Shown piece after piece: positions 7,233 through 52,700 of a stretch of 64,000 nt of DNA (its first letter is position 1; each line of letters opens with the position of its first letter). The position numbers and the translations under genes were made by a program. Source of the stretch: an uncultured virus (IMG/VR IMGVR_UViG_3300017767_000007) (taxonomy: Duplodnaviria > Heunggongvirae > Uroviricota > Caudoviricetes). The notes under the pieces are model-generated. The model worked only from the letters and a program-made list of their open reading frames with translations, made no database searches and was not told where the DNA came from. Location of the stretch: IMG/VR virus record IMGVR_UViG_3300017767_000007; one strand, written 5' to 3'.

Positions 7233-8702
7233 TTGGTTAGAGCAATGAACAATAAGAAGACCAAAAGGGCAAGTCCAGGTACAGGTTATGAAATAATCGA
7301 AAAGGAGTCTCATTTATTATCAACAATGTCAAGACTCGCATTTGCACGACACCTACACAATCTTTACCCCGTTAAGTCCGTTAAAGGATGGGAAATGGCT
7401 ACTCAAAGGTGGCAAAAGGGTAATAGTGTTATTAATCCAGAAGTTGTAGCAGCACCTACAACTCGTATGTATTCAACCGACGCATATTACTATAACAATG
7501 ATGAAGACCTTTACTTTACTTTCCTTCGTGCAGCCGACCAAGTAGTAAAAATAGAAGGTGATGTTCACCGACAAATGAAGGCTGATTATTCCAATATGGC
7601 AACTGACGCACTAACAATCAATGAAATGTGCAGAAAGTATGCAATGCCTCGACCCTGGTTGGAAGAATATCGAAAGAGGCATGGTTGGACTCACGATATG
7701 TCTCCTTTTACAGATGAAGAATTTGCAGAAAAGGACACAGATGAAATGGTAAAAGACCTTATTCATTGGAGAAAGAAGGAACTGTTTGAAAAGTTTGAAC
7801 AGGCTCGCTGGAAAGACCTTGAAAAAGATGCTTCAAAGTGGAGAAATCTTAACGACCACCTGTTAGAAGAGTTCCTAAATCTTATTCCAAACGCACCTGA
7901 AGCACCAAATCGCTTAGAATTAACCGATGATGAAAAGCCATATGCACTTGTAGTATCAGCAACTGACTTTCATTGGGGTAAATATGGTTGGGTTGATGAA
8001 GTAGGTGAAACATACGACTTCGATGAAGCAAAGCATAGACTAATGGATAGGACTCAAGACCTTGTATCTCGATTACCATACCAACCTGAAAAGATAATTA
8101 TGGGTACAGGCAGCGACTGGTTTCATGTTGATAACGACTTAGGGACAACTACAAAGGGTACTCCACAAGATATGTGCGGTACACCAGCCCAAATCCTTAA
8201 AAGTGGTTGTGAATTGGCTGTCGAACACATAGAATTACTTAGACAAGTAGCACCTGTTGAAATCTATAACATGGCAGGAAACCACGACAGAATGTCTGCT
8301 TTGGCTCTTATCATGTATCTTGACGCATATTACAGAAATGCTGATGATGTTAGCGTAGTAGTTTCACCATACCCAAGACAATACATGACTTATGGAAACA
8401 ATTTGATAGGTTTAACTCATGGTGATAAAGCAATGCAGAAGTTACCTGCACTAATGGCTAATGAAGCAAAGGCTGAATGGGGAGTAACTGACCACCATTA
8501 TTGGTTTCACGGACATTTGCACCATCAAACTGTTAAAGAAAGTGCTGGAACTCTTATTATTCAATTGGCTTCTCTTGCAGGGCATGACAGATACCACGCA
8601 AGGGCTGGTTATACAATGTCAAAAGCAGGTTTGTCTGGATATATGATTGACAAAGAAGAAGGTCTAATTTGCAGTTTGTTCTCTCCTGTGGAGGGGCATT
8701 GA
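7233..8702 (+). CDS. Calcineurin-like metallophosphoesterase with N-terminal extension
   Basis: Motifs TDFHWG, GSDWF, GNHD, THGD, HGHLHH. Confidence 0.85.
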   Translation: MVRAMNNKKTKRASPGTGYEIIEKESHLLSTMSRLAFARHLHNLYPVKSVKGWEMATQRWQKGNSVINPEVVAAPTTRMYSTDAYYYNNDEDLYFTFLRAADQVVKIEGDVHRQMKADYSNMATDALTINEMCRKYAMPRPWLEEYRKRHGWTHDMSPFTDEEFAEKDTDEMVKDLIHWRKKELFEKFEQARWKDLEKDASKWRNLNDHLLEEFLNLIPNAPEAPNRLELTDDEKPYALVVSATDFHWGKYGWVDEVGETYDFDEAKHRLMDRTQDLVSRLPYQPEKIIMGTGSDWFHVDNDLGTTTKGTPQDMCGTPAQILKSGCELAVEHIELLRQVAPVEIYNMAGNHDRMSALALIMYLDAYYRNADDVSVVVSPYPRQYMTYGNNLIGLTHGDKAMQKLPALMANEAKAEWGVTDHHYWFHGHLHHQTVKESAGTLIIQLASLAGHDRYHARAGYTMSKAGLSGYMIDKEEGLICSLFSPVEGH

Positions 8703-8828: not shown

Positions 8829-8972
8829 ATGAGCGAACATCATAGGTTTTGTGAAAAGGTATACTGTAAGTTTTGTGGCTTTGCTACAGGAATTATGGAA
8901 GCGTCAAAGGCAATGGCTGGTAAATGTCCCCACTGCAAAAAAGAAGGGGGGTTGATGCCTCTTGGGTATTAA
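8829..8972 (+). CDS. Small zinc-ribbon protein
   Basis: CKFC...CPHC from ATG 8829. Confidence 0.5.
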   Translation: MSEHHRFCEKVYCKFCGFATGIMEASKAMAGKCPHCKKEGGLMPLGY

Positions 8973-10446
8973 CACCACTCGTATGAGCCTTTTAAGGTCA
9001 AAAAACGATATTAAGTATTTCTATGAATGGTTAGGTTATACATGGGGAGAGCATATAGATGAATGGGTCAATCTTTATACTGATAGAAAAGATGCACAGG
9101 TTCACAGGACTTGTATTATTGCGCCTCGTGACCACAGTAAATCAACAACCCTCCGTATTGTATTGCTACACCATGCTCTTTTTCTAAAGTGGCGTAGCAA
9201 ACCTTTTACTTGTTGGTTGTTTTCCGCAAGCAGGGATACTGCTTCAAGGCGTTTACAAGAAATAAGAGAAGATATTCTAAAGCATCCTGAATTGTCAAAG
9301 TATCTTGATACTAAGCGTGGTGGCAAATATGAATTGTTTTTTACTAATGGCGCATGGATAAGAGCCACATCTGTTGGTTCTGCTATTCGTGGTGAGCATC
9401 CAGCCTGTATTGCTCTTGACGATGTTCTTATGGATATGGGAGATATGTCAATGGATTCAGTTAGAGGTTGGCTTAGAAAGGTTGTCACTCCTATGTTGTC
9501 TCCAGGAACCAGCCTATATTGTGTTGGAACTCCTATGGCTATGACTGATATTTACCATACTGAAATGTTAGGTAATAAGGTTTGGAAAGCAGGCGTTTGG
9601 TCTGCAATCCTCAATTGGGATGAATACAAAGCCGACCCTGATAATGTTAAGCCAGAATGCCTTTGGCCTCAACATAGACCCATAGATTTTATACTTGAAC
9701 AAAAAGAGGCTATGCAGGAATTAGAATTTACTCAAGAATACCTTTGTAGAGTTATTGATGAAGATTCACAAGTATTCCCAAGAAAGATAAGCCGTCAAAA
9801 TATGGATATGGAATTAATGTTAGAAAAGGAAAAATTTCATGATGGCAAGTATGTAATTGGTTTTGACCCCTCACATGGATTAGGAAAAGACTACTCAGTC
9901 CTTGTAGTATTGAGGCAAGACTCGGATGGTTACATTTATCTCGTTGATATTTGGAGAAAGAATGACTTTCCACCTGAAAAGCAGGTTAATGTCATAGCGC
10001 AGTATAACGAAAGGTATAACATGCCTCCTATCGCTATTGAAGATGTAGGGTTTCAAAGGTTGTATAATGCCATACTTATGCAAAAGGGAGTTACTATTGA
10101 TTACAGACCGTCTAAAGCAAGCAACAAATCCCTAAAGCAAGGGCTGATGAGCAGACTTAGAGCATGGTTTGAACAAGGGAGAATTGTATTACCCTTCGGA
10201 GATGAACCGACTCGCAGGGTTATCAGATTATTTTTAGAAGAGTTAGAAAGTCATGCCTGGAAAAATGGTGACATAGTGGACTTAGGAAAACACAATGATA
10301 TGGTTATGGCCTTCGCTCACGCCATAGACCAATTCATTATGCCAACCAAACATGAGTCATTTAGTATGTCAAGCACTTCTCTCAACAACTGGCAAAATTC
10401 TACTGAATCTCCAAAACCTGGCGGAAAATTCCCATTTTTCTTTTAA
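8962..10446 (+). CDS. terL: Terminase large subunit
   Basis: Walker A variant APRDHSKST, Walker B IALDD, VGTP coupling motif, nuclease IGFDPS and HNDMVMA. Confidence 0.92.
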   Translation: MGINTTRMSLLRSKNDIKYFYEWLGYTWGEHIDEWVNLYTDRKDAQVHRTCIIAPRDHSKSTTLRIVLLHHALFLKWRSKPFTCWLFSASRDTASRRLQEIREDILKHPELSKYLDTKRGGKYELFFTNGAWIRATSVGSAIRGEHPACIALDDVLMDMGDMSMDSVRGWLRKVVTPMLSPGTSLYCVGTPMAMTDIYHTEMLGNKVWKAGVWSAILNWDEYKADPDNVKPECLWPQHRPIDFILEQKEAMQELEFTQEYLCRVIDEDSQVFPRKISRQNMDMELMLEKEKFHDGKYVIGFDPSHGLGKDYSVLVVLRQDSDGYIYLVDIWRKNDFPPEKQVNVIAQYNERYNMPPIAIEDVGFQRLYNAILMQKGVTIDYRPSKASNKSLKQGLMSRLRAWFEQGRIVLPFGDEPTRRVIRLFLEELESHAWKNGDIVDLGKHNDMVMAFAHAIDQFIMPTKHESFSMSSTSLNNWQNSTESPKPGGKFPFFF

Positions 10447-10533
10447 TATAAAGTTTTTTTTCAGAAATTTTTTTTGTGTATTATGCGCTCTGGTGGGCGT
10501 TAGGTTAGTACAAAAAATCTTTTTTTTTGTCAT

Positions 10534-10543
10534 CATATATAAG
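10534..10543 (+). promoter_or_regulatory. TATA box for leader transcript
   Basis: CATATATAAG about 35 nt before a structured non-coding region. Confidence 0.5.
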
Positions 10544-10576
10544 CATTTACCATACTACTTCATATACTTGAATGAA

Positions 10577-10864
10577 TAGGCTTATTTGTCCCCGATGGCG
10601 GGGGCGGGGGGGCGACTTCCTACGGCATGCGTCGTGAAAAGTATGGCTATAGTAGTGTAAACTACGGTGGTGTTAAGGGGCGAAGCGTATAAAAAAGTGT
10701 TAAGGGTTCATAGGTGTAGAAACGCTACAAATCGGTTAGATGCCGAACCTATGGGCGAAGCCATAGCACTATCCAAAAAACGGATGTATAGCCATAGACC
10801 TTCCCGATGCGAAGGTGATACGATAGGTGATTGACCGATAAAACAAGTATAGCGAATAAGCCTA
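10577..10864 (+). ncRNA. Candidate structured ncRNA / long 5' leader
   Basis: Closing stem 10577-10588/10853-10864, inner 10-bp stem 10642-10651/10787-10796, several hairpins. Confidence 0.6.
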
Positions 10865-10915
10865 AGCCGAATAAATACGGGCGATAACGAACAAACCAAA
10901 AGGGGGTGTTTACGG

Positions 10916-11287
10916 ATGGCAAAAAACCAACCAAAGGCACAAACAAGCGTGGTTAAAGCGACACCAAAAACGCAACTTAACGCAATGGGGAAGCGCACAA
11001 AGCGTGGATTCAATGCGGAAGGTGTAGCGAATGGCTTGAATAAGGCTATTCGATGCGGTGAAGACTACTTAGAAGCATACTATATGGGCGAATACTACCG
11101 TTCATCAAATGCTTGCGACGGTGTAATTGCATTCATTAACGGTGCAATTCAATATGCCGAAGCGTATGTGGTCAAGGCTTCCGACGATGGCAACGACCTT
11201 GATGCAATGACTTCCAAGTCCATTGCTAAAGCGATAGGTTATGTCAAGATGTTAGAAGGCTTAACGCACACCAAGCAACAAGTTTGA
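10916..11287 (+). CDS. Hypothetical early protein, basic N-terminus
   Basis: GGGGGTG RBS; contains no CAG/GAG/CTG/CTC in any frame. Confidence 0.75.
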   Translation: MAKNQPKAQTSVVKATPKTQLNAMGKRTKRGFNAEGVANGLNKAIRCGEDYLEAYYMGEYYRSSNACDGVIAFINGAIQYAEAYVVKASDDGNDLDAMTSKSIAKAIGYVKMLEGLTHTKQQV

Positions 11288-11332
11288 ACCAAGAATGAAT
11301 AAGACATGAATGGCGAACTAACCCCCATAAGA

Positions 11333-11643
11333 CACACATTATGTGTGAATCCCATGCTTAGACCTAAGCCGTTCTTTAACGGGGTGTGATTTTGACACCA
11401 ACGATAGCAACGGGGGACTTAACGGGATTAACAAGGCGACCCATGCCATAATGAATAGATGGGCGAATATGGATAACGACACAATCCACGCATCACATAG
11501 CGATAGATGTGACCCTTTGGCCGAATGGGTGACAATCGGCCACCCTAACGGATAGGGGGATTGCATACGCTTCTAAAGGATTAAGTTGAATACCTAAAGG
11601 CGCACATGATAAACCCATGAATGTGCGTGTGTGCATCCCCCCC
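11333..11643 (+). ncRNA. Candidate structured ncRNA
   Basis: At least eight adjacent hairpins and nested stems in an intergenic gap. Confidence 0.6.
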
Positions 11644-11649
11644 GTAATT

Positions 11650-11844
11650 ATGGAAGAATACAATATAAACCAATTTTGTATAGGTTGCGAAACCATACAT
11701 CATAATTCAATCGTAATGGTTGAAATCGAAATGCAATTAATAGACGGGTCAATACTTGACTTCAAATTATGCGAAAGGTGTTATGCCACTATGAAAGCAC
11801 CACAAGAATGCGTGGCAATATTAGTTAAGGGGTATGAAGCATGA
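11650..11844 (+). CDS. Small zinc-finger protein
   Basis: CIGC...CERC; likely ATG 11650. Confidence 0.55.
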   Translation: MEEYNINQFCIGCETIHHNSIVMVEIEMQLIDGSILDFKLCERCYATMKAPQECVAILVKGYEA

Positions 11845-12032
11845 AGTCCCTATACATGCGAAATAGAACCCTATACAACCAACTACAAAGGCAATGTGCC
11901 GAATACAACAAGAAGGCACTACAATGGTGTTTCAACCGCCCAAGCATGGGGTATGCTATGATACACCCAACCGAAGATAAGGTAGTTATCTTCGATACAA
12001 ACAATAACACAATCACCCTTAAGGAATTGTGA
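11841..12032 (+). CDS. Hypothetical protein
   Basis: ATGA overlap with previous gene. Confidence 0.55.
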   Translation: MKSLYMRNRTLYNQLQRQCAEYNKKALQWCFNRPSMGYAMIHPTEDKVVIFDTNNNTITLKEL

Positions 12033-12448
12033 ACATGGTGGATTGGGTTGGGGGTCATGCCCCCTTCCCGACCATACACATGTTAGGAAACATTGTAATT
12101 GAAGGCGAAGTAGTTGTAGCACTTTGTTTGATTGTTGGCTTGATGCTTGGATGGTATCACGCACACATGAAGGCATTTGCTATGGCGGAACAAGATGGAA
12201 CACCAAAGCGTAGGCACAAATACTTCAATATACCCGTTATATTGGATATGCCTGAAACCCTGAAATATACGGGGCATTTAGGATTGCTTGAAGATGCAAT
12301 AGCATCAATCAAGGGATTGTCTGAATTAGCCGACGACGATAAGGAAGACCATCAACTTCATCTAAGATTGATGAAAGACCATTATAGACATGCGGAAGAT
12401 ATACTTTTTGATATTGGATGCGGTCTCGGTGAAAGAAGTCACGAATAG
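12029..12448 (+). CDS. Hypothetical protein with one TM helix
   Basis: VVVALCLIVGLMLGW segment. Confidence 0.55.
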   Translation: MNMVDWVGGHAPFPTIHMLGNIVIEGEVVVALCLIVGLMLGWYHAHMKAFAMAEQDGTPKRRHKYFNIPVILDMPETLKYTGHLGLLEDAIASIKGLSELADDDKEDHQLHLRLMKDHYRHAEDILFDIGCGLGERSHE

Positions 12449-12491
12449 ATGAATACCCATAATCCGACATGATACGGGGTCGTAATGAAGT

Positions 12492-12527
12492 CATAGGGGG
12501 TTCGCCCCCTATGGCTTCCCTTTTTTT
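12492..12527 (+). terminator. Hairpin + T-tract terminator
   Basis: CATAGGGGG-TTCG-CCCCCTATG then T7. Confidence 0.8.
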
Positions 12528-12553
12528 ATTTGTATAACACCAGATCTGCAGAT

Positions 12554-12742
12554 GAGATCTCCCCCGCAACCAAAAAAAATACTGCGTTCCTGCTGCTGCA
12601 CCAGATGAGGTCTGTATATGTAAAAAACACAGCGCCAGCCTGCTGCTGACGAGATCTCCTACAAAATAGTAAAAAACATCTGCGAGGTCCTGGGACCTCC
12701 CCCTGACAGACAAAACTAAAAGATAGCGCAGGCTGCTGCTGA
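12554..12742. repeat. Degenerate ~48 bp tandem repeat (about 4 units; further copy at ~13304-13355)
   Basis: Units of GAGRTCT/GGACCT ... A-tract ... GCG ... CTGCTGCTG. Confidence 0.6.
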
Positions 12743-12743
12743 T

Positions 12744-13079
12744 TCAATCTTCGTCAGGCCAGCAACTGCTGCATTCGCATCCAACATAGCACCAGGGTTC
12801 TTCAGACTTAGGCTGCAAAATAATCTTTGGTGGGCCTGCATCTTCAGCCCAGGGGTCAAATTCTTCTTCATCAGCAACAACAGGTTCTTCCTGGTGAAGC
12901 GTTTCCAGCATCCACAGGACGGATTCAACTTGGTCAGGTCTTAGCTGGCCATTGTTCTTGTTTACAGGAATCTGGGATTGGAACGCCTTATTGCAGGAAG
13001 GGCAGACCCATTTGTTGCCCAAGCAGGCCTCCATTACTATGCCACATTCGCAGGCAATCTGTACAGAAATCTGCATCAT
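12744..13079 (-). CDS. Zinc-ribbon hypothetical protein
   Basis: CECG...CPSC and C-terminal CECSSC. Confidence 0.55.
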   Translation of the reverse strand: MMQISVQIACECGIVMEACLGNKWVCPSCNKAFQSQIPVNKNNGQLRPDQVESVLWMLETLHQEEPVVADEEEFDPWAEDAGPPKIILQPKSEEPWCYVGCECSSCWPDED

Positions 13080-13219
13080 TCATCACCACACATGCAGGGC
13101 ATCAGAAATCCCTCGTTGTCTTTTATCGGCAGGCCTCGTGTTTTAAATCCACCACAAGTCAGGCATTGCTGCGCCATGACATTGCGGAAGATTGTTCCAG
13201 ATATGGTTTCGTTCCCCAT
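13076..13219 (-). CDS. Small zinc-ribbon protein
   Basis: CLTC...CMC; ATG 13219 about 22 nt after TATA at ~13241. Confidence 0.5.
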   Translation of the reverse strand: MGNETISGTIFRNVMAQQCLTCGGFKTRGLPIKDNEGFLMPCMCGDE

Positions 13220-13370
13220 GTAACTGCTACTACTAACTACTATATAAGTCTTTAAGAGGTCTCCACAGATGGTTATATCGGGAGAATTTAGCCTGCAGGC
13301 CAACAGATCTCCCCAGCCAGCATAATAAACAAAAAAAGCTGCGCCTGCTGCTGGCAGGCTTCCCAAACGG

Positions 13371-13407
13371 AAAAAGCTGATGCAGGGGCCTGAACCCCCG
13401 CACCAGC
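13371..13407 (-). terminator. Hairpin + T-tract terminator
   Basis: Minus strand GCTGGTGCGGGGG-TTCAGG-CCCCTGCATCAGC then T-run. Confidence 0.65.
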
Positions 13408-13555
13408 GGCCACCTGACTAAACAGGGTAATGCCCCATGAAACCCCGAACAGATCTCATAGGGCGGTTATGCGGTTGCTGTATCTGTGCCTTCCTCATCA
13501 CACGCATATCGGTATCATAACCTGCAAACCTGAAGATTGCTGCTAAGCTGAAGAA

Positions 13556-17967: not shown

Positions 17968-18080
17968 GTATTGAGGTAAATACTAATAGTATTTATAGTT
18001 TTAGCAGACCGCATGAGCACTAATACAGATTCAGATCTCCTACGCTAAATACTTATATACTATTACTAATTACCTCTATT

Positions 18081-19038: not shown

Positions 19039-19575
19039 GTGAAACGAATGACAGAATTAAGAGGATTAGGATTAAAATGTTGTGGTCAGCAACGCAGGTA
19101 TGACAGAAAGATATTTACTGTGATGGGTTCACAGTCAGGTGCGGGACTATCAATGAGTTGTATCTGCGGTTATTGTGGTGCTTCACATCAGGTTAAACTT
19201 CCATACCCTCATTTTATCAGGCATCTTCCGATAAAAGACCAGATAGAATCTCTTAGCCACCACATGATACATTCGCAGATAGGCGGTCAGTATTGGTATA
19301 GTGTCAGGAAGATGCAAAGAAAGCACAGCATCGGCCAGCATAAGCAAATGCTCGACGCAGAAACCGATGAATTACACCACGCAAGAGGTTCTGATACAAG
19401 AAAATTCTTCAACCAATTAGAGCGTGAACTCATGGATAGGAATCTGGGGCTCGCATCCAAGAAACAGCAACTTAATTATTGGGACAGGAAGCACAGGCGT
19501 ATGGAACACTTTGATGAGAAGTGGGAGAAATTTATCGCAGGTCACAACCTATCGGAGGTGTTGTATTGGCAATAA
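19039..19575 (+). CDS. Hypothetical Cys/His-rich protein
   Basis: Own promoter; likely ATG 19048. Confidence 0.6.
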   Translation: MKRMTELRGLGLKCCGQQRRYDRKIFTVMGSQSGAGLSMSCICGYCGASHQVKLPYPHFIRHLPIKDQIESLSHHMIHSQIGGQYWYSVRKMQRKHSIGQHKQMLDAETDELHHARGSDTRKFFNQLERELMDRNLGLASKKQQLNYWDRKHRRMEHFDEKWEKFIAGHNLSEVLYWQ

Positions 19576-19964
19576 ATCTGTGGAAATTGGAGGACTACAA
19601 AGAATACCTCAGCGACTTAGGTTGGTCTGATGAAAGAATTGAAGATGAGGCCGAATACCGCTTTACAGATGTTCAGGGTGAACAAATCAAATACAGGATT
19701 AGACCTGACGGCTCATGGCATTGGCAGGAATTGTGTGATACAGGCGGATATTGGGAGCCAATAGAGGACCTAACAGAACACCTCCTATGGTATTTCAAAT
19801 ATACAGAAGGCGAGGGATTTAGATGTGTCTGTCATGATTCTCAATTCCTCACACTCAAATTAGTAAAGAACCCTGAAGGGTCTGAATACCCATACAGGTA
19901 TGAAGCAGATGATGACTGCGTATGCTGTCACCACAACAAAACTGATGCAGGAGTCCCCTCTTAA
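19521..19964 (+). CDS. Hypothetical acidic protein
   Basis: ORF track; true start probably later. Confidence 0.55.
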   Translation: MGEIYRRSQPIGGVVLAINLWKLEDYKEYLSDLGWSDERIEDEAEYRFTDVQGEQIKYRIRPDGSWHWQELCDTGGYWEPIEDLTEHLLWYFKYTEGEGFRCVCHDSQFLTLKLVKNPEGSEYPYRYEADDDCVCCHHNKTDAGVPS

Positions 19965-20022
19965 AACCTTATATATGATGACTAACTAACTCATAATAAC
20001 CGAAAAAAGAACAGGTGATGTA

Positions 20023-21577: not shown

Positions 21578-21864
21578 TGGAAACTACTGATGATGTCAAA
21601 GAGTGGAATCCTGAAAAGCATTATTCTCTATTCACTATGAACTGTGAGTTGTGTGAGGCTCACGACTACTTAATTTTCAGCGAGGTCTTGAAACTTTTTT
21701 GCTGTGAAAAATGCTACAACAATCTGGGAGGGAAAGACTGATGAAAAAGAGAACCAGATGCTTCTCCGATTTAGACGGTATTATACCCCAACCCAAAAAA
21801 CTAATCAGAAAAATCCTGCTAAAGACTTATATACTAAGACGGACTAACTCAAAATAACGGACAA

Positions 21865-35744: not shown

Positions 35745-35993
35745 ATGATGCGTATTGCTCGTAATCAAATCCTGTGTTCATTATTGACGGCACATGAGGT
35801 AAATGGGTTCATGCAAAATCTTGACCCTCCGCAACTTGTGTATGTCAGACATGACGATAATTCAGACATCTATGATTATCTAAAGTTATCTGTGGGTGAT
35901 ATAGTCTATACTAAACAGACGCATACTGAATATGTTAGGACAATAAGCAATATGTTTATAATCCCTATTGAGGAAGTTGTGGGTGTTGAATAG
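35745..35993 (+). CDS. groES: GroES-like co-chaperonin
   Basis: ~82 aa directly before GroEL; LSVGDIVY and FIIPIEEVVGV resemble GroES VKVGDKV and LILRESDILAV. Confidence 0.55.
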   Translation: MMRIARNQILCSLLTAHEVNGFMQNLDPPQLVYVRHDDNSDIYDYLKLSVGDIVYTKQTHTEYVRTISNMFIIPIEEVVGVE

Positions 35994-37491
35994 TATGCTG
36001 AACGGTAAAGAAGCCAAAGATAAACTGCTTATAGGTATTGATAAGGTGTATAGTGCTCTTGCGCCCACACTTGGTCCTGCGCCTCGATTAGTGTTGATTG
36101 ATTCTGACGAACATGATAAAGACCCACTCATTCTTGACGATGGAGTAAACATTTCTAAGTTCATCAAATCAGATTGTCCCTATGAAATGGCAGGTATCAA
36201 GTTAATGCGTATGGTTGCTCACGAAGCACAAAAGGCTTCTGGTGACGGAACAACATCTGCTACCGTGATAGCAAAGCACCTAATAACAAACTTATTTGAG
36301 GAAGAACATCACCCAGTTAGGCTTGAGAAAAACTTGCTTAAGGCATGGGAGAGTTTTAAGAATAGTTTAGAGGAATCCAAGTGGGATGCAAGCCCAGAAG
36401 AATTGCGTGAAGTCTGTTTGTCGGCACTTAATTATGACGAATTATCAGCGGGTTGCATCATGGAAGCGTTTGACAGCGTTGGTGCTGAAGGAATTGTAAT
36501 GGTGCATGAGCATCCAGGAGAATTAACTAAGGTCGAAACGACTCAAGGTTTGACTCTCAATAAGGGCTTTGTATCTCATCTATTTGCTGGTTCTCGTGAT
36601 GGTAAAGTAGTCTATGAAAACCCTGCAGTATTAGTTACAGACCATGATATTGTCACCTTTGATGAATTAATTCCTGCGCTACAATGTGCTGCTGAAAACA
36701 AGAAGCCACTAATCATTATCGCTGCTGGTTGGAAACCACACGCTATACAGAATCTTTTGCTAAACGCTGTAAATGGTAAAGTTATGGCCTGTGCTATCAA
36801 TGCGCCTGCTGGTGGTGAAGAACGGGCTGAAATCTATGAAGATATAGCAACTTCATTAGGCTGTAAACCAATACTTGCTGCTAAAGGTGAGCGATTAGAA
36901 GATAGAGATTATTCCCTTGAAGACTTTGGGTCTGCGGAATTGGTTTCCATTGACCGTAATACAACCGTATTTTCAGGCGTTGGTGGTAATGATGAAGAAA
37001 TTGAGGCTCGTATAGAACACTTAGAACAACTCAAAGCCGACGCAGACCATCCATTCTATGAACAAAAATACAACATGAGAATCGCTAAACTAAGAGGTAA
37101 GATTGCTACTATAAAGGTCGGTGGCCTGACCGATGTTGAAGTTCGTGAAAGACATGAAAGAATTGATGATGCCGTAAATGCCGTTAGAAGTGCTTTAACG
37201 GGCGGTGTTGTGCTTGGTGGGGGTATGATGCCCTACAAGATAAAAACGGGCTTTGTAGCCTTCGATAATGCCCTTAAATCGCTTGTTCAAACAATGGTAA
37301 AGAATTGGGGTCGGGAAATGCCCCAGACCGACGATGATTGGATATTCTTTGATGCTTCAACAGGAAGATTTAACGCTTATGATAATCATTTGGTTGATTC
37401 GCACGATGTAATTCTCAATTCGGTAAAGGCTGCTGTTTCTGTGGCAACACTTGTATTAAAGACGGAAACAATTTTGTCCGAAAGCAAATGA
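35968..37491 (+). CDS. groEL: Group I chaperonin (GroEL-like)
   Basis: TLGP, DDGVNI, GDGTTSA, KPLIIIA, RIDDAVNA; likely ATG 35995. Confidence 0.92.
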   Translation: MRKLWVLNSMLNGKEAKDKLLIGIDKVYSALAPTLGPAPRLVLIDSDEHDKDPLILDDGVNISKFIKSDCPYEMAGIKLMRMVAHEAQKASGDGTTSATVIAKHLITNLFEEEHHPVRLEKNLLKAWESFKNSLEESKWDASPEELREVCLSALNYDELSAGCIMEAFDSVGAEGIVMVHEHPGELTKVETTQGLTLNKGFVSHLFAGSRDGKVVYENPAVLVTDHDIVTFDELIPALQCAAENKKPLIIIAAGWKPHAIQNLLLNAVNGKVMACAINAPAGGEERAEIYEDIATSLGCKPILAAKGERLEDRDYSLEDFGSAELVSIDRNTTVFSGVGGNDEEIEARIEHLEQLKADADHPFYEQKYNMRIAKLRGKIATIKVGGLTDVEVRERHERIDDAVNAVRSALTGGVVLGGGMMPYKIKTGFVAFDNALKSLVQTMVKNWGREMPQTDDDWIFFDASTGRFNAYDNHLVDSHDVILNSVKAAVSVATLVLKTETILSESK

Positions 37492-46293: not shown

Positions 46294-46755
46294 TTAATTT
46301 ATAATTTCCAAGTGTGGCGACCACCATACTTCTCTATGCTCAAAATGCTTCCAAGTACTGTTAGACATAATTTTTTTGGCTTCAGAATGTGCAAGTTTAA
46401 TATAACCTAAATTGCTGACAACGCTCTTTAACTGAGACATTTTCGATTCTTCAATTGGATTTAATACTGCTACAATCGGTTTTCTAATTCGTTTGTTTCT
46501 TTCCTGTAAAATTTTAGTGTGATAACCTTTACCTCTAAAACCTCTCTTAACATAGGTATTTCCGACCAAAATAAAAGAATCTATGTATGCTGTGCAAGTG
46601 TATGCCACTGGGACATCTCCTTCATACAAAAACCAATATGTCGCAAAATCAAAAAGAGGTGGATAGCCCTTTTCTGTCGCTGGAATAATTTTTTCTCCCC
46701 AAATACTTTCAGCGTTTTCAATACCCATAACTAATTTTAAGAAAATGCTCATCAC
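46294..46755 (-). CDS. GNAT acetyltransferase
   Basis: NTYVKRGFRGKGY motif A; last gene of tail operon. Confidence 0.7.
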   Translation of the reverse strand: MMSIFLKLVMGIENAESIWGEKIIPATEKGYPPLFDFATYWFLYEGDVPVAYTCTAYIDSFILVGNTYVKRGFRGKGYHTKILQERNKRIRKPIVAVLNPIEESKMSQLKSVVSNLGYIKLAHSEAKKIMSNSTWKHFEHREVWWSPHLEIIN

Positions 46756-49700
46756 CTTGAAACTACATTTGTGTCAAAGACTTCTCCAGGACCATCAACC
46801 ATATTTGCGCCTGTTTTCATAGTTACGCTGATTGATGAAAGTTTTACGGATTCTTGAGCTGCTGTATCACCATTGATACCAGCCGCTCTTCTGATTGTAA
46901 TTTCTAAGTGATTACCTGCTACATCAGCACCTTCTATCTTTTGATTGAATAAATTGTGTCTTAAACCATTTTGGTTTATAGGGATGACAAGAGTTTCCGT
47001 TTTGCTAAATCCTGTTTCAACAACCTTTACAGTAGTGTATATCTTGGCAAACCCTTCTGCCGTTGGATTTGTATTAAGCCCTATTCCACTTGGAGTTGGA
47101 ATGGTACTTTGGTTAGTTTGAGCAGACTCTGAATGCACAGTAGTATCAACCTTAGAAAGAATAGTTACTGAATTATTTGTAACATTGTTAGGTACTACTT
47201 GTATTCCAGAAACTTCTGATACTTCGGCTTGTTCAGAATCACCAGCTGCAAATGTTCTGCCTGGCAATGAAATTCCAGTTTCGCTTAGAGCAGCACTTCC
47301 CCCCGATGGAGTAAAAACACCGTCATTAGAAACTAAAACAGAAGTTTCTATTGCTGCTGGCAATGGTCTGTCTTGACCTAATAACCCCCATTCCGAATTA
47401 CCCATAGGCACCTGCATTTTCTTTTTTAGTCTTCCCATAATGCCTTTAGATACTTGATTAATACCTATTGTGCTTGCAGTAGTGTAGCCTGTTTGACTAC
47501 CAAATGTTCCTGGTGGGGTCAATTCAGGTCTTGGTCTTGGTTTGGGTGCAGGACCTGTTGTATCTCCGCCTGGAGGCACAGGTTCGCCATCGTCTTCATC
47601 AGAATCTCCACGACCCGATGTTCCACCTGGTCCTGCTGGACTTGGTTTAGGGTCATTAATAATAGGAGGAGTCAAAAACATAGAACCTAAATTACTTAAG
47701 AAATGAGATTCATCAGTTGTTAGACCTAATACTACTTCTTCATGTCTTAGTGGGTTTATTTTCCATTGAACATTATTAATAATCAAAGGTTTGTTTGTAA
47801 ATCCATAGGTTGAATCGCTATACTGTAGAGCAGTTCCTGTTCTAAAGTTAATGTCGTCATTGATAATCAATCTCGGTGCATACCACAAAGTCCTGTCCCT
47901 CATACCAGACCCAAATTCGTCATAATATCTGCACCCAAGAGGGAATATAGACTTGTCATTATATGAACCGCTGCCGAGGAGGGTGAAGTAATTTGTCGGT
48001 GCGGATTCAACAGGTACTCCGTGAGCAGGATTTAAGATATTTCCTAATGTATCTCCACAACGCATTCTGATTAAAGATTCTAAGTATTCTCTGTTTACTG
48101 AAACTATAATTTTATTGACAATACCAGTTCCAAATGCGTATGTGGGTGGCAAATTAAGTTCAAGAAAACCATTATCCAATGAGCCATAACTAACGGTCTG
48201 TGAAAAGAAATCGTTTGCGTGGCTATGCCCTTGACCAGCTGCATTAACTGCTGCAATGTGATTCAAATCTCCTCTATTACAAGCCCCAAACCATTCTGCT
48301 TCACCTATTAGATTTGGGTCTCCATTTGAGTCAGTACCGTTAGAAGAAACAAAGCCTGTGTTTCTTGTTGCATTATCTCTGAATATAGGGTCAATAACTG
48401 TTATAATAAACTTTGCCGATGTAGCAGCCTCGTCAATTGTTCCAGGAGTAGGCGCACCACTTCTTGTCCCATCAACGCTAATAATAAATCTTAATTGATT
48501 TCCTGTTGTCATACTGTATTTAGGTAAGCCTTGAGGAACATAAACAACTTCAATAGCATTAGCAAGGCTGTTTGCACCATACCAATAATTATTTCCAGCC
48601 CAAGTAATTTCATCAGAAGCATTTACAACTGAAGCATCCCTGTTAGATGCTCCAATAAGAGGAGTATTGGTGTTATTGAGTTGGCCGTCAAGAGCACTTA
48701 CTGAACCAGAAAAGAAATTGTTGTTCATCCTTCCCATCATATAGTGCGGGTACTTACCGTATACTGTCCTTTGTGGGTCAGCAATATACCCATACCTTGC
48801 ACCATCAAGCATAACATCATCTGATTGCGTTCCTCGCACTACTTTTGCATTTAATGAAACGGGTGCTTTCTTTGCTTTCAAGTATTCTTGTTTTGCTAAA
48901 TACTCTGCTTCTGCTTTAGTTCCCACATCGGGCATATCCATAATTTTCCAGCGAATGTTTTCTGTCCCTACTACTTTTGGATAGTCACAAAATGACTTAG
49001 AATCATTGAAGTAAACTCTAACATGAGTTACTCTTTGTTGTATGCTTGTGTTCATATTAGATATATTCAAAACGCTTCTGTCGAGCGAGCGGAAAGAATT
49101 GTAGCCAGGTCTAAGTTCTATTCTGCCATCAGGACCAATTTGATAAGTAAATGTTTGTCCGAGGCCTGAAGTTCCAGTACCAGCTGCTTTTTGAATTTTT
49201 ACTATGGCACTATACATTGTTGAATTTTTAGCATTTACTACACTGCCAAAACTGTCAAATTGTGTATTATTGTGACCCCAGTGGGGACTGCCAATAGTTG
49301 CAGAGCCATTAGTGCTCATTATTTTTGTTTGTGGCACATTCTTAAAGGATGAAATACCTGTAAATTGAGATTTACCCAACCAATTTTTTGTCAAAGACAA
49401 CATATTTAAGAATCTAAACTTTTCGCTTTCAAACCATGTTCCGCTGTTTTCGTTTTCGACCTTACCAGAAATACGCATCATAAATCTCATACCACTAAGA
49501 GGAGCATACGAGTTATACGCAGTAACACTATCATAATCTTCTAAGTCAAATATCGCTCTTGAAGATGAACCGTTTTGTTGAGCAGCCTTAATGTTATTTG
49601 CTGCTATTGTTCTTTCAGCAGCAGTCTTGGTTGGAACTCCGTTCAAACCTCCTACAATATCAACGAACACATTGTTTAAATAGTTATCAACTGTATTTCG

Positions 49701-52700
49701 ACCAGACCAAGCATAATACCATGTATATGTTGTCTTTGTCTGTCCAGCTCCTTCAACTGCTACTATTCTTCCAACTCCGCTATCATCCCATTCTGTAACA
49801 TCGTCGAGGTATAACCTGTTAATTCCACTAAAATTATCTGGTTGGTTTCTTTTTACTTCCGACGCATCTTGAATAAAGTCCATTTGTTGAGGGTGAGGCA
49901 TATATGGGTGTTGAATAGTTTTGTATGAAGGCATTGCTTCAATCCAATAGTTATCCATCATAATTGGGAATCCGTGACCTACTGCAAAGTAATCTTGTAG
50001 GTCTGTCCTCCCACCACCTATTCTTCCTGTCCTTCCAAGATTTGCTTCAGTATTCACATTCCAGAATTTGCTTGTGTCAATAACAACAAAGGAACCTGCT
50101 TTATCTTCCCAATTGTGGTATATTGAATTAGAGTCAGAGTTTGAGCCAAGAGGTAAAGCAGACCAGGGTGCTTGAGTTACAGGTTCAAGCGTTGAATCTA
50201 ATTCCCATATGTCTAAGTCTTCACCAACCTTCAAATCAGCAAACTTAACAGGCGAGCCGTCAGGTTCTTCTGAATCAACAAATTCCATGCTAACACTATA
50301 ATTATTAGAAATAGGCATCATTAAACCAAACTTCTTTTTCCTTAAACCAGAATCAGCGTTAGCAGTTCCATCATTTCTCATATCAGCCCAGAGAATCCAA
50401 ATGTGTTTGTAATCGTTATCAATTTCTCTAAATCTTACAATACTTCCTGCAGAGTGGAATTTAGACAAAAATTGTACTCCTGTAATTGAAGCATAAGTCT
50501 GGTCGACTGCGTTAAAACCAGCTAAACCTGTAAATGTAAAAGAATCTACTGTTCCGTCAGCATCCACAATTTCTCCAACGCCACCTGATGTAGCCATTGT
50601 AGTTACTAATCCTATTGGGTTTCCTGTTGTTTGGTCGTTTAATGCTAATCTTGTATTTGCTATTGATACTGTTTGACCAGTTGTATATGCGTTAGGAAAA
50701 ATATCTGAAGATAATAATACATCTGGGTGATAGGTTGAACCATTTTTACCTTGACTGATTTTCTTTTCCTTGATACGCCCAAACTGCATTTGAAACCACT
50801 TAGATTTAGGCATATCTTGAATCCAACGAGAATGTACTGCTCTATATGGTCTGGCAATAGAATTATTAGCAGCAGCAAGAGGTGCAGTCGCTTGTTCGTT
50901 GCAATATTCTAAGTCAGGACTATCATACAAAAACCAGCCAACTTCTCCAGCAGTTCCTAATCCAAGCCCTGTTATTTCGTTGTGGTTATAATATAGGTTC
51001 GCTAAATCTCCATAAGTAGCGTTATATGTTCCGTTACCTAATTGAGAAACTTCAAGATAATGTGTCCCATCAATCCATGTTTGGCCTGGGTCTGGCATAT
51101 TACCAAAGCCTGTGATTTCAAATACAAGAGTTACAATCCCATCCCAATTATTACCTGTTGTCCCTTGTGGAATTTGAATTGGGTTTCCTTGAGCGTCATT
51201 CCCACCATATCTAATTACCAAGCGTTGCCCAATGTATAAATCCCAGATGTTGATATTTTCACCTGTCTTAAAGTAAAGTTTTGTTATTAAATTCCCAGCA
51301 GGTTCTGAGCCACCATGAGCATTATCAAGTATATTAGTAGCACTCCAATATTGCCAAACATTGTCGCCATTAGAATTAACTCTAAACCAACCCAACCTAT
51401 TTAACCAATCTTGCTGAGTATAGGAAAGTGTAGAATGAGCAGCATTCCAACTGGCATCAAACATTTGTCCAGCAAAAGTATCGTTATTTTGATTTTGACT
51501 TGTTGGTGGGCCTGGTAAAGCAGACCCAAACCCATTCCAACTTCTATACAAATTATCAAACGGAGTACTTCCTACAGTATAACCTCCACCAGGAACTTGT
51601 GCTCTTCCTGTCTTTGGGTTGTTAGGAATATCAGCGTCAATCAAAGCAAAATGATAACCACAATTTGAGCTCCTTGTTGTTTGTTGCCAATTTGTAGGGT
51701 CAGGAATATCTCCAGACCAAAGGGTATTAGGGTAATCGTGTTGAAGTGGTGTAATGTTTGCTGTTGTGTGCTTAACCCTATTACTGCTGGTTAATCTCAT
51801 TGGAATATCAAGGTTACCTCTTGTTAGGTCACGAGGAGTTACTGTTACTCCATTAATTGTGGTGGATGAGTCGCTTGGTAATTCAGATATTCTATTATAC
51901 CTTTGACCTGACTGACTTGCACCTCTAAAAACTCTTGTGTCTGAAATAGTAACATATTGCTTTTCCCAATCTATTAAATGTCTTGTGTTGCCTGCAGAAG
52001 AACTAACAAATTCACCACCTAAAAGAGCTGGATTTTTATAGATTTCATCGAATTGCAAAGTCCAGTAATGCTTTAGTCCTGTCTTATGCCTTCCGTCATC
52101 ATAACTGTCATTGTTGTCAATAGCCAAAATTTTACCTGATGGGACATATGTTTTGTCAATGTAAAAGTGATTTGTTGATGGGTCGTGAACTGTAAATGAG
52201 CCACTATAATTAGTTGAGCCTTGTATGTTTATTGTTTCTCCTTGAGTATATCCGTGAGCATCAGAATAAACTCTTAGTGGGTTTGTAAGTGCAGATGGAT
52301 TAGCATAAGTCGCTTCAGGCTTTTGGAATCCATAAATGTGAGTTTGACCTACATAATCGTATATAGTATCAGGTGCTCCTCCTTCTTCATTATACATTTG
52401 AATTGGGTGTCCCGAATTTAATCTCATTCTTGTTGATGTATCTGCATTATAGTTCGGTCTTTCATAACCTAAAGTACCTGTGCCTCTTTCAAGAGAAGTA
52501 GCACCTAAATGCAACTTTTCAATAAAGTTTGCAGATTCGTATGGTCGCCAGCCAATAGGTTCGGTTTCATCTATTTGTTCACTTTGTCCTACTTCCCAAA
52601 TAGGTATTGTTCGGTCAAGAGAAGCCAAATAATCTCTGGCACTCAACTTTATGATTTTTTCTCCAGGTCGGTTTTGGTTGCTGGTGTATCTTTCAATATG

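Follow-up and report, generated by a model that had tools for sequence, protein, structure and literature searches.

A conserved non-coding hairpin array between two small genes beside the terminase gene of an uncultured marine phage

The window analysed here, a 64,000-nucleotide (nt) stretch of DNA from an uncultured marine tailed phage (IMG/VR record IMGVR_UViG_3300017767_000007), covers most of a genome of ~65 kb; contigs of up to 65.9 kb carry relatives of its proteins. Downstream of the terminase gene terL, two small genes that we call p123 and p75 are separated by a genuine, conserved, non-coding array of about ten hairpins, which has no counterpart in Rfam and is not demonstrably a new kind of element. 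The last hairpin of the array, P8, stands immediately ahead of the p75 start codon and probably controls this next gene. We give about an even chance to the reading that the array is a cis-acting intercistronic mRNA structure, in which P8 serves as a translational operator and/or a double-strand-specific processing site, and the other hairpins serve as stability or binding modules for the p123 message. Literature searches returned no published description of the array, and its absence from print rests on these searches together with Rfam.

Conserved pairing in the hairpin array

In the window, the array holds 13 perfect hairpins (a stem of at least 5 Watson-Crick pairs and a loop of 3-14) in 362 nt, versus 3.8 ± 2.2 per 350 nt window-wide. 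This ties the maximum of 13, which is otherwise reached only by the gap upstream of p123, partly through an A-run/T-run palindrome. The dense pairing claimed by an initial annotation of this DNA is thus borne out, and all the stems that it named are found in their places, where span-limited folding, together with a separate fold of 11548-11649, recovers them. The fold z-score of the array is -2.93 on the + strand and -2.15 on the - strand (-1.27 for the first 220 nt alone). Since such single-sequence scores are unimpressive, the case for the array rests on comparison with relatives. Its parts in the window are as follows.

11288-11649, + strand: non-coding intercistronic hairpin array (362 nt), between p123 and p75
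11333-11347, + strand: H1, CACACA-UUA-UGUGUG
11348-11429, + strand: variable domain, with GCUUA/UAAGC (11356-11369), a UAAGCCGUUC...AGCAACGGGG module, nested GGUGU/ACACC (11383-11399) and a possible outer AAUCCC/GGGAUU
11440-11463, + strand: M3, CCCAU...GAAUAG-AUGGG, with GGCGA on both flanks
11470-11488, + strand: M4, UGGAU-AACGACACA-AUCCA, with a varying stem and a fixed loop core ACGA.A
11493-11512, + strand: M5, UCACAU-AGCGAUAG-AUGUGA
11518-11542, + strand: M6, UGGCCGA-AUGGGUGACAA-UCGGCCA
11543-11557, + strand: H7, CCCUA-ACGGA-UAGGG, which cannot coexist with the lower half of P8
11548-11645, + strand: P8, a long irregular stem-loop made of P8a (ACGG/CCGU), an AUA bulge, P8b (GGGGGAU/AUCCCCC) and P8c (GCGCACAU/AUGUGCG)

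The homologous locus was gathered from viral and metagenome contigs with TerL and p123 as anchors, and duplicates were removed. What remained were ten distinct gap versions with recognisable blocks in common (the window, L050, L003, L051, L006, L014, L007, L054, L055 and L058), together with L001, whose gap differs from that of the window by one base pair only, and three distant lineages (L010, L011 and L025), whose p123 homologues are 26-34% identical. The ten distinct relatives that retain the hairpins come from uncultured marine phages. The array is non-coding: the longest open reading frame (ORF) in the gap measures 25-75 aa, depending on the version, and lies on differing strands and in differing frames, and the 34-, 67- and 75-aa ORFs that lie over the array in the window are split across frames or cut by stops in relatives.

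Each sequence was folded separately with a 48-nt span limit, and the resulting hairpins were placed on a MAFFT alignment, where they fall into common columns with differing stem sequences. Column shuffles of the ten-sequence alignment (100 trials), which keep composition and relatedness and destroy structure, never reached the observed values. The sequences carry 6.0 hairpins of at least 5 pairs each, versus 4.3 ± 0.5 in the shuffles (0/100); four hairpin clusters are present in at least 7 of the 10 sequences, versus 0.15 (maximum 1; 0/100); and the local energy is -72.0 versus -58.0 ± 2.1 kcal/mol (0/100). The evidence for conserved pairing that is most free of assumptions comes from L001, which differs from the window at 3 of 4204 aligned bases (window 8947-13150). 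Two of these three are the partners of a single H1 pair, in which A11334G accompanies T11346C and turns A-U into G-C. The initial annotation had staked its structured RNA on pairing being conserved in homologues and on no reading frame being conserved there; pairing is indeed conserved, as seen in the column shuffles, the covariation of P8 (below) and the compensated H1 pair, and the ten versions hold no common ORF.

Along the array, stems change and positions stay. The H1 position, which follows a C-rich run, is occupied by a hairpin in 10 of 11 rows, and the 5′ arm takes ten different forms (CACACA, CGCACA, CACCC, ..CCCGTGT, CTTGTGT, TTGCG, GCGC, ..CCGCA, CCGC and a longer one in L007). In the variable domain, the UAAGCCGUUC...AACGG module is carried by the window, L001, L050, L006, L054 and L055, and GGTGT/ACACC becomes GGTAA/TTACC in L050 through two compensated pairs; the domain is swapped for other hairpins in L003, L051, L014, L007 and L058. 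Two stems of the initial annotation need amending here. For CCGTT, the distal AACGG (~11413-11417) is a better partner than the adjacent one, and relatives have a single AACGG, after AAGC. The letters of the outer AATCCC/GGGATT (11348-11353/11424-11429) are present as it stated, but this stem is absent from the + strand minimum-energy fold and is found only in the window, L001 and L050.

Further along, the M3 stem reads CCTTC/GAAGG in L014 and CCCC/GGGG in L055. The M4 stem takes the forms TGGAT/ATCCA, GTATTG/CAATAC, GCCT/AGGC and GGAT/ATCC around loop letters (A46, C47, G48, A49 and A51) that are invariant in 11 of 11 rows. M5 becomes TCGCAT/ATGCGA in L007 and TCATAT/ATATGA in L006, and ACCCC/GGGGT stands in its place in L014, L054 and L058. 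The M6 stem is identical in six rows; L006 and L007 place G-run/C-run stems under the same UGGGUGA loop, and L014, L054 and L058 have GCATC/GATGC. H7 forms helix 5 of a six-helix covariance-model alignment, with 86% of its cells paired. It cannot fully form in L007 and L054, where CCC-UUAC-GGG is the alternative. The CCCTA/TAGGG stem of the initial annotation is present, but as a competitor of pairing in the lower part of the terminal stem-loop. The sole terminator-like site within the array is a weak 5-pair stem at 11369-11382, and a promoter signal was not found there.

Modules are shared between lineages as in a mosaic: CGATG-AATCAA-CATCG occurs in L014 and L007, and ACCCC/GGGGT plus GCATC/GATGC in L014, L054 and L058, unlike L055, which retains the M6 of the window type. 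This wholesale replacement and mosaic sharing of hairpins argues for a string of independent hairpin units instead of one globular fold. Behind the p123 homologue, the three distant lineages carry unrelated sequence that is folded even more strongly (z -7.78 for L011 and -4.25 for L010, with 0/200 shuffles as good in each; -2.86 for L025), which suggests that a stable structure at that place is selected. We read the array as a set of largely independent hairpin modules, exchanged or rebuilt between lineages, with their positions and some of their loops retained. On the + strand, A makes up 47% of the unpaired positions, C 22%, U 18% and G 13%; a composition rich in A and poor in G is usual for RNA loops.

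The upstream leader (below), p123 and the array co-occur in phages whose TerL is at least 80% identical and are jointly missing from relatives at ~60%, which have neither p123 nor long gaps and carry small ORFs directly after terL in 12 of 12 loci examined. With the covariance models R1 and R2, the 64-kb window gives a single site, and 19 other terL loci give none at E≤0.01. An exact copy of the M6 hairpin sequence was found in none of 185,579 prokaryote species genomes, a degenerate M5 pattern occurs in only 5 viral contigs, all already in the set, and blastn of 10447-11650 against 50,697 phage records gave no match. An Rfam 15 cmscan of 9500-13500 on both strands at a permissive E≤10 left the array unmatched and returned two matches outside it. 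One lies at 13370-13431; the other is a sub-threshold match to ctRNA_pGA1 at 12460-12531 (+ strand; 30.3 bits versus a gathering score of 45), which overlaps the operon terminator and is most likely just the terminator hairpin. According to ARAGORN, tRNA and tmRNA genes are absent from the window.

The terminal stem-loop and the start of p75

P8 is the part of the array with the clearest architecture. In the window, GGGGGAU.GCAUACGC/GCGUGUGUGC.AUCCCCC encloses GCGCACAU/AUGUGCG, and 11548-11649 folded alone reaches -39.1 kcal/mol (z -5.11; 0/200 shuffles as good). The corresponding segment of each version, from ACGGAUAG to just short of the next ATG, was folded independently, and the same succession of P8a, AUA bulge, P8b, internal loop and P8c emerged in 10 of 10 folds. 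P8a has 4 pairs (ACGG/CCGU, CGGG/CCCG, AUGG/CCAU), P8b 3-7 (GGGG/CCCC, GGU/ACC, GAU/AUC, GGUGUAG/CUACGCC) and P8c 5-7 (GCACAU/AUGUGC, GCAUAU/AUGUGC, GCACUU/AAGUGC), while the 3-nt AUA bulge is invariant in all ten. In the window, a branched 60-nt insertion takes the place of a simple P8c. The z-scores of the ten versions range from -1.29 to -5.11, with 0, 0, 1, 2, 0, 0, 1, 3, 5 and 22 of 200 shuffles as good.

A model-based alignment, fitted to a structure that was itself derived from the ten independent folds, has 90% of P8 cells pairing, versus 31-60% when slid and 80 ± 2.1 when shuffled (0/500). Five of 14 pairs are changed on both sides, resulting in 13 compensated cells versus 5.4 ± 1.6 (0/500) and a covariation score of 0.286 versus 0.135 ± 0.026 (0/500). 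The P8 cells include 4 G.U and 0 A.C.

The base of P8 lies 2-4 nt ahead of the p75 ATG at 11650 in 10 of 10 sequences. This ATG is the only start common to all ten, and L006 and L014 have no other in-frame start; p75 therefore encodes a 64-aa CxxC...CxxC protein, and the start listed by the ORF finder (ATG at 11617) falls inside P8. Alone in its operon, p75 lacks a Shine-Dalgarno sequence, with CCCCCCCGTAATT upstream of its start, whereas p123 (AAGGGGG; AAGGGGGTG), p63 (AAGGGG) and p139 (AAGGAA) have Shine-Dalgarno-like sequences 8-11 nt upstream of theirs. P8 is followed by GUAAUUAUGG and no U-tract, and does not have the form of an intrinsic terminator.

A stable helix 2-4 nt from an unassisted AUG lies within the footprint of the 30S subunit and should hinder initiation. 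With its base at this distance from an ATG that lacks a Shine-Dalgarno sequence, folded P8 should thus keep the 30S subunit off the p75 start codon. Three routes of relief can be envisaged. First, a competing upstream pairing of CCCUA with UAGGG may open the lower half of P8: its G-rich 5′ strand (GGAUAGGGG / GGAUAGGUG) can instead pair with the upstream CCCUA or a CCC segment, and the alternation of H7 and P8 is a possible switch. Second, a protein may read the AUA bulge. Third, a double-strand-specific cut, as at the RNase III sites of T7, may remove the block and leave a protective 3′ hairpin on the p123 message. In the same reading, H1 to M6 would act as nuclease barriers or binding sites.

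The operon, its leader and p123

The array belongs to a short block of genes on the + strand, in which all genes flanking it point the same way.

7233-8702, + strand: Metallophos-type exonuclease, in the same short + strand block as the array
8962-10446, + strand: TerL (Terminase_6C, phrog_38), followed by a 470-nt gap to p123
10527-10543, + strand: promoter-like motif TTGTCATCATATATAAG at the head of the operon, a conserved block in 9 of 9 aligned upstream regions
10550-10915 (about), + strand: structured leader of ~365 nt ahead of p123, recognised by the column-shuffle test
10916-11287, + strand: p123, an ORF of 123 aa
11650-11844, + strand: p75, 64 aa from the conserved ATG, zinc-ribbon-like
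11841-12032, + strand: p63, downstream of p75
12035-12448, + strand: p139, the last gene before the terminator
12487-12518, + strand: strong intrinsic terminator, a 14-pair stem followed by a T run, which closes the operon

From the gene orientation and the single terminator, we infer that the region is one transcript, an mRNA from the + strand that would begin at the promoter-like motif, span the leader, p123, the array, p75, p63 and p139, and end at the terminator at 12487-12518. The block that heads the leader, TTGTCAT..TATATAAG, may possibly be the phage's own type of promoter. Two other gene gaps contain close copies of it (19968-19984 and 18052-18068, on the - strand in each case); at 3 mismatches or fewer, the window holds 5 matches versus 4.0 ± 1.9, so that the total is not above chance. 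A motif of the form T(T/A)GT(C/A)AT(C/A)(A/G)TATATAAG occurs in several gene gaps, with a further copy at 21826-21842 (- strand), and the copy at 19968 faces left, towards 19039-19964, a segment for which the ORF finder gives + strand ORFs only.

The leader is structured and conserved like the array, and the claim of the initial annotation that two hairpin-packed stretches bracket p123 holds. It carries 7.3 hairpins per sequence versus 5.1 ± 0.6 in column shuffles (0/100 as good) and 5 conserved clusters versus 1.1, with a local energy of -83.6 versus -67.2 ± 2.6 kcal/mol (0/100 as good). A CCCCG-AUGG-CGGGG hairpin is kept in 9 of 9 sequences, and CCTTC/GAAGG changes to CCACC/GGTGG in compensatory fashion. 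At 10706-10764, CAUAGG...CCUAUGG...CCAUAG can pair first with second or second with third, mutually exclusively, in the manner of an attenuator. The leader also holds, at 10680-10686 and 10755-10761, two of the three + strand copies in 64 kb of GCGAAGC (a G-C/C-G stem with a GAA triloop), which recurs in the downstream arrays of L014 and L054. As DNA, GCGAAGC is an unusually stable mini-hairpin.

Several words are common to both flanks of p123. AUAG (5 vs 1.9 and 8 vs 2.3) and GGCGA (3 vs 0.36 and 4 vs 0.44) are enriched in the two, and AUGGGCGAA occurs in both and once inside p123. The word AU(A/G)UGGGCGAA, which could be a binding site, lies at 10748-10759 in the leader, 11081-11094 within p123 and 11456-11469, 3′ of M3, and 6 of the 14 + strand occurrences of GGGCGA in the window lie within 10447-11660. 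C-runs, G-runs and CG-containing words are nearly absent from coding regions (20001-46000) and abundant in both arrays (10447-11660), where CCCC is observed 56 times versus 3.2 expected from the coding background; with ~48-50% GC versus 40%, the arrays are foreign in composition to the remainder of the genome. A global similarity between the flanks was rejected (local alignment score 22 vs 19.1 ± 2.5; only four common 9-mers), as was the idea of a mobile element: terminal or inverted repeats joining the flanks were not found. Direct-repeat families were not found beyond two-copy matches of 14-24 nt.

The p123 protein is conserved, with an invariant GKRG...G..N..NK..R..D motif in the alignment of its homologues. 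Its AlphaFold2 model (pLDDT 77.9) consists of a disordered N-terminal tail and an acidic three-helix bundle. Residues 1-33 of the tail contain 8 K/R, mostly lysine, and no D/E (+8), and the remainder has a pI of 4.75. The small basic protein of the initial annotation is therefore small, but basic in its disordered tail only. In a profile search of 1.84 billion proteins, the family is small and restricted to phages (13 representative clusters). It has no Pfam or PHROG match and no Foldseek match in PDB or BFVD at E≤0.001, the ESM Atlas returned nothing, and none of the Pfam, PHROG and fold searches assigned p123 to TerS. The lack of a family or fold match neither supports nor excludes nucleic-acid binding.

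Elsewhere in the genome, the - strand carries the structural genes (portal-like, tape measure, minor tail), and the + strand carries a GroEL-like gene, a DNA polymerase and exonucleases. The GroEL-like chaperonin (35968-37491, + strand; phrog_5725, E 7e-90) is unusual in a tailed phage of ~65 kb, and PHROGs gave no match at E≤1e-5 for a 2537-aa ORF (46752-54365, - strand) that adjoins the tape-measure gene. By tblastn, TerL is at most 27% identical to the terminases of cultured (T4-like) phages, so that no experimental system or published transcriptome is applicable.

As for expression, seven public runs contained 5-14% of the words of the region, and contigs from four RNA-labelled runs (three studies; X5-X7 left out) were aligned to it. 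Eight contigs (151-223 nt, depth 2-5) match without differing letters, all within 10611-11465, including 11315-11465 and the leader pieces 10611-10833 and 10734-10820. No piece fell on 10300-10610 or 11466-12600, where at depth 2-5 a lack of coverage proves nothing on ends or expression. The contigs weakly indicate presence in RNA libraries and no more, since carry-over of DNA may account for them. In one X2 contig, opposite strands are fused at 10958/11029 within p123, which is probably an assembly artefact.

Alternative readings and known systems

The initial annotation had proposed an RNA-protein cassette for host takeover or anti-defence, with p123 as the partner protein. Nothing found supports discrete RNA ends, p123 binding, self-cleavage, host takeover or anti-defence, and the array has no promoter or terminator of its own. 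Given that no such signals lie inside it, that its last hairpin is tied to a start codon and that p123 is basic in its tail only, a cis-acting mRNA element fits better.

Several results weigh against this preferred reading. An operator accounts for P8 only and leaves the role of the eight or nine other hairpins to guesswork. The next gene of L011 is preceded, behind the last hairpin, by an ordinary GGGGGAAG Shine-Dalgarno sequence, so that occlusion of the start codon does not extend to the whole of the wider family. The z-scores of single sequences are modest, and a control within the p123 coding sequence (-2.29) does better than the first 220 nt of the array. RNAalifold on the plain MAFFT alignment recovers only 16 pairs (-4.76 kcal/mol), and comparison of positions in close pairs finds more broken than compensated pairs (window versus L050: 10 broken, 3 changed on both sides), which means that much of the conservation consists of hairpin replacement and not of point covariation. 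Both strands pass the column-shuffle test (z -5.9 for +, -7.9 for -), stems are nearly all Watson-Crick (2.5 G.U per sequence versus 7.0 in shuffles), a strand-neutral count of internal mismatches gives G.T 0, A.C 3 and other 9, and the noisier six-helix alignment has 22 G.U versus 31 A.C; together, these leave room for a hairpin signal at the DNA level. Finally, the library contigs carry no information on the strand or ends of a transcript. That six-helix alignment has 70% of its cells paired versus 62.6 ± 1.2 when shuffled (0/500) and 25-48% when slid, with several helices mis-registered. Because replaced modules and mis-registration blur both it and the RNAalifold result, we placed weight on the per-sequence folds, the column shuffles and the P8-only model.

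Possible but unlikely, in our view, is a processed trans-acting RNA or RNA-protein particle, in which the arrays are excised and serve takeover or counter-defence, either together with the p123 tail or by acting as decoys that engage RNA-binding or RNA-sensing proteins of the host. Such a role would suit arrays that flank p123 and co-occur with it, the AUAG and GGCGA words enriched in both flanks, the +8 tail, and the invariant M4 ACGA.A, M6 UGGGUGA and P8 AUA bulge, which resemble recognition sites on covarying stems. A precedent also exists in a phage RNA from the terminase region, cabRNA, which interacts with host immunity (PMC10686824). However, a separate RNA would have to arise from an array with no promoter or terminator of its own, the locking of P8 to the p75 start codon points to a role in cis, and the hairpin loops differ from one another, unlike an array that repeats a single binding site. 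GGA (6 vs 6.4) lacks the enrichment of a CsrB/RsmZ-like sponge, p123 has no recognisable RNA-binding fold, and no neighbouring defence-related gene was identified. The more specific proposal that both arrays and p123 form one module, whose two stable, processed multi-hairpin RNAs have their invariant loops and GGCGA/AUAG words read by the p123 tail or by host factors, as a particle or decoy, we regard as distinctly unlikely. Such a module would redirect RNA-binding or RNA-sensing machinery of the host, and its RNAs would be of a hitherto undescribed kind among structured phage RNAs.

Improbable, too, is a signal in DNA: hairpins in single-stranded or extruded DNA would mark a site of packaging, replication or recombination, with p123 as a DNA-binding partner, for instance a TerS-like one. 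The site lies directly downstream of terL, its stems are almost all Watson-Crick and score alike on both strands, G.T is not favoured over A.C outside P8, two of the three + strand copies of GCGAAGC lie in the upstream flank, with further ones in the downstream arrays of L014 and L054, and p123 has a basic tail. Yet protein sites in double-stranded DNA would keep their sequence instead of covarying towards arbitrary stems. The A-rich, G-poor unpaired positions are strand-specific, in the mRNA sense, P8 holds G.U but no A.C cells, and a fixed spacing of 2-4 nt between P8 and the ATG would be meaningless for DNA. TerL is distantly T4-like (at most 27%), which suggests headful packaging without a complex cos site, p123 has no TerS fold match, and the flanks are not joined by terminal or inverted repeats.

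Transcription attenuation or antitermination of the lambda N/nut or put type, which we consider quite improbable, would have hairpins without U-tracts pause or terminate the polymerase, and p123 or the RNA modify it, thereby setting the ratio of p123 to downstream products. A small protein with a basic, disordered N-terminus between structured RNAs after a promoter-like motif recalls pL-nutL-N, and alternative pairings are available in H7 versus P8 and in CAUAGG/CCUAUG versus CUAUGG/CCAUAG at 10706-10764. Against this, U-tract terminators were not found within the region, a repeated element like boxA/boxB was not recognised by eye (no nut-site model was run beyond Rfam), and the p123 tail is lysine-rich instead of carrying an arginine-rich motif. 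Chance palindromes, a hidden small gene or a dispersed REP-like repeat, to which the modest single-sequence z-scores and the spurious 34-75 aa ORFs over the array might point, are largely refuted by the column-shuffle and covariation tests, the compensated pair of L001, the lack of a conserved frame, the single window site of the models (none in 19 other terL loci, E≤0.01) and the M6 search of 185,579 prokaryote species genomes, which leaves them a negligible probability.

The annotation of uncultured marine phages mostly proceeds by single genes, and the non-coding RNA of these phages has hardly been explored. The present locus offers a testable case, in which two long, conserved and covarying hairpin arrays surround the gene of a small orphan protein, all within a self-contained operon of 2 kb that adjoins the terminase gene. 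If P8 is an operator or processing site, this would extend T7/lambda-style post-transcriptional control to a lineage without a cultured relative and provide a defined element for reporter assays; if the arrays are processed and act with p123, they would form a new class of phage RNA-protein module. Hairpin swapping at fixed positions, combined with invariant loops, is moreover a signature for elements that alignment-based covariation tools miss.

Among known systems, cabRNA, the CBASS-activating phage RNA, is ~400 nt long, hairpin-rich and derived from the terminase region of a late operon, and the cabRNAs of different phages have unrelated sequences that are all predicted to form hairpins (PMC10686824). 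The sequence of cabRNA is part of the terS/terL coding sequences, and its defining property is that it binds a host cyclase (PMC10686824), whereas the array is non-coding, lies in a separate small operon downstream of terL and has selected pairing. With regard to CsrB/RsmZ sponges, GGA occurs 6 times versus 6.4 ± 2.1 in the array and once versus 9.0 in the upstream flank. REP/BIME palindromes are short GC-rich hairpins behind stop codons that are thought to stabilise the upstream mRNA, and are dispersed in many copies. The array resembles them in its short hairpins after a stop codon, but each of its hairpins is unique, and R1 and R2 mark one site in 64 kb.

The RNase III signals of T7 early mRNA (R0.3, R0.5, R1.1 and others), like the RNase III hairpin in the leader of lambda N, are cut so that a protective 3′ hairpin remains on the upstream message and downstream translation is altered. 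Like P8, these sites are irregular stem-loops with internal loops or bulges that lie between cistrons, directly 5′ of the next start codon; P8 would occupy just this position, immediately 5′ of the p75 ATG, if the region is transcribed as one unit. It has ~20 stacked pairs in the window (4 + 7 + 9) and 13-16 in the nine other versions, set against the ~two helical turns typical of T7-type sites. P8 shares no sequence similarity with the T7 sites, the array adds eight or nine hairpins that those lack, and cleavage of P8 is only predicted.

Translational operator hairpins of phages include the MS2/PP7 coat-replicase operator and the RegA and gp32 operators of T4. Such operators, like P8, are hairpins at the start of a phage gene with a covarying stem and invariant bulge or loop nucleotides; in P8, these are P8a and P8b, which covary, and the AUA found in 10 of 10 versions, with the base 2-4 nt from the ATG. 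By position, p123 and p75 are candidate binders. P8 differs from MS2-type operators in being much larger, in ending before the ATG, which in MS2-type operators lies inside the hairpin, and in preceding a gene without a Shine-Dalgarno sequence.

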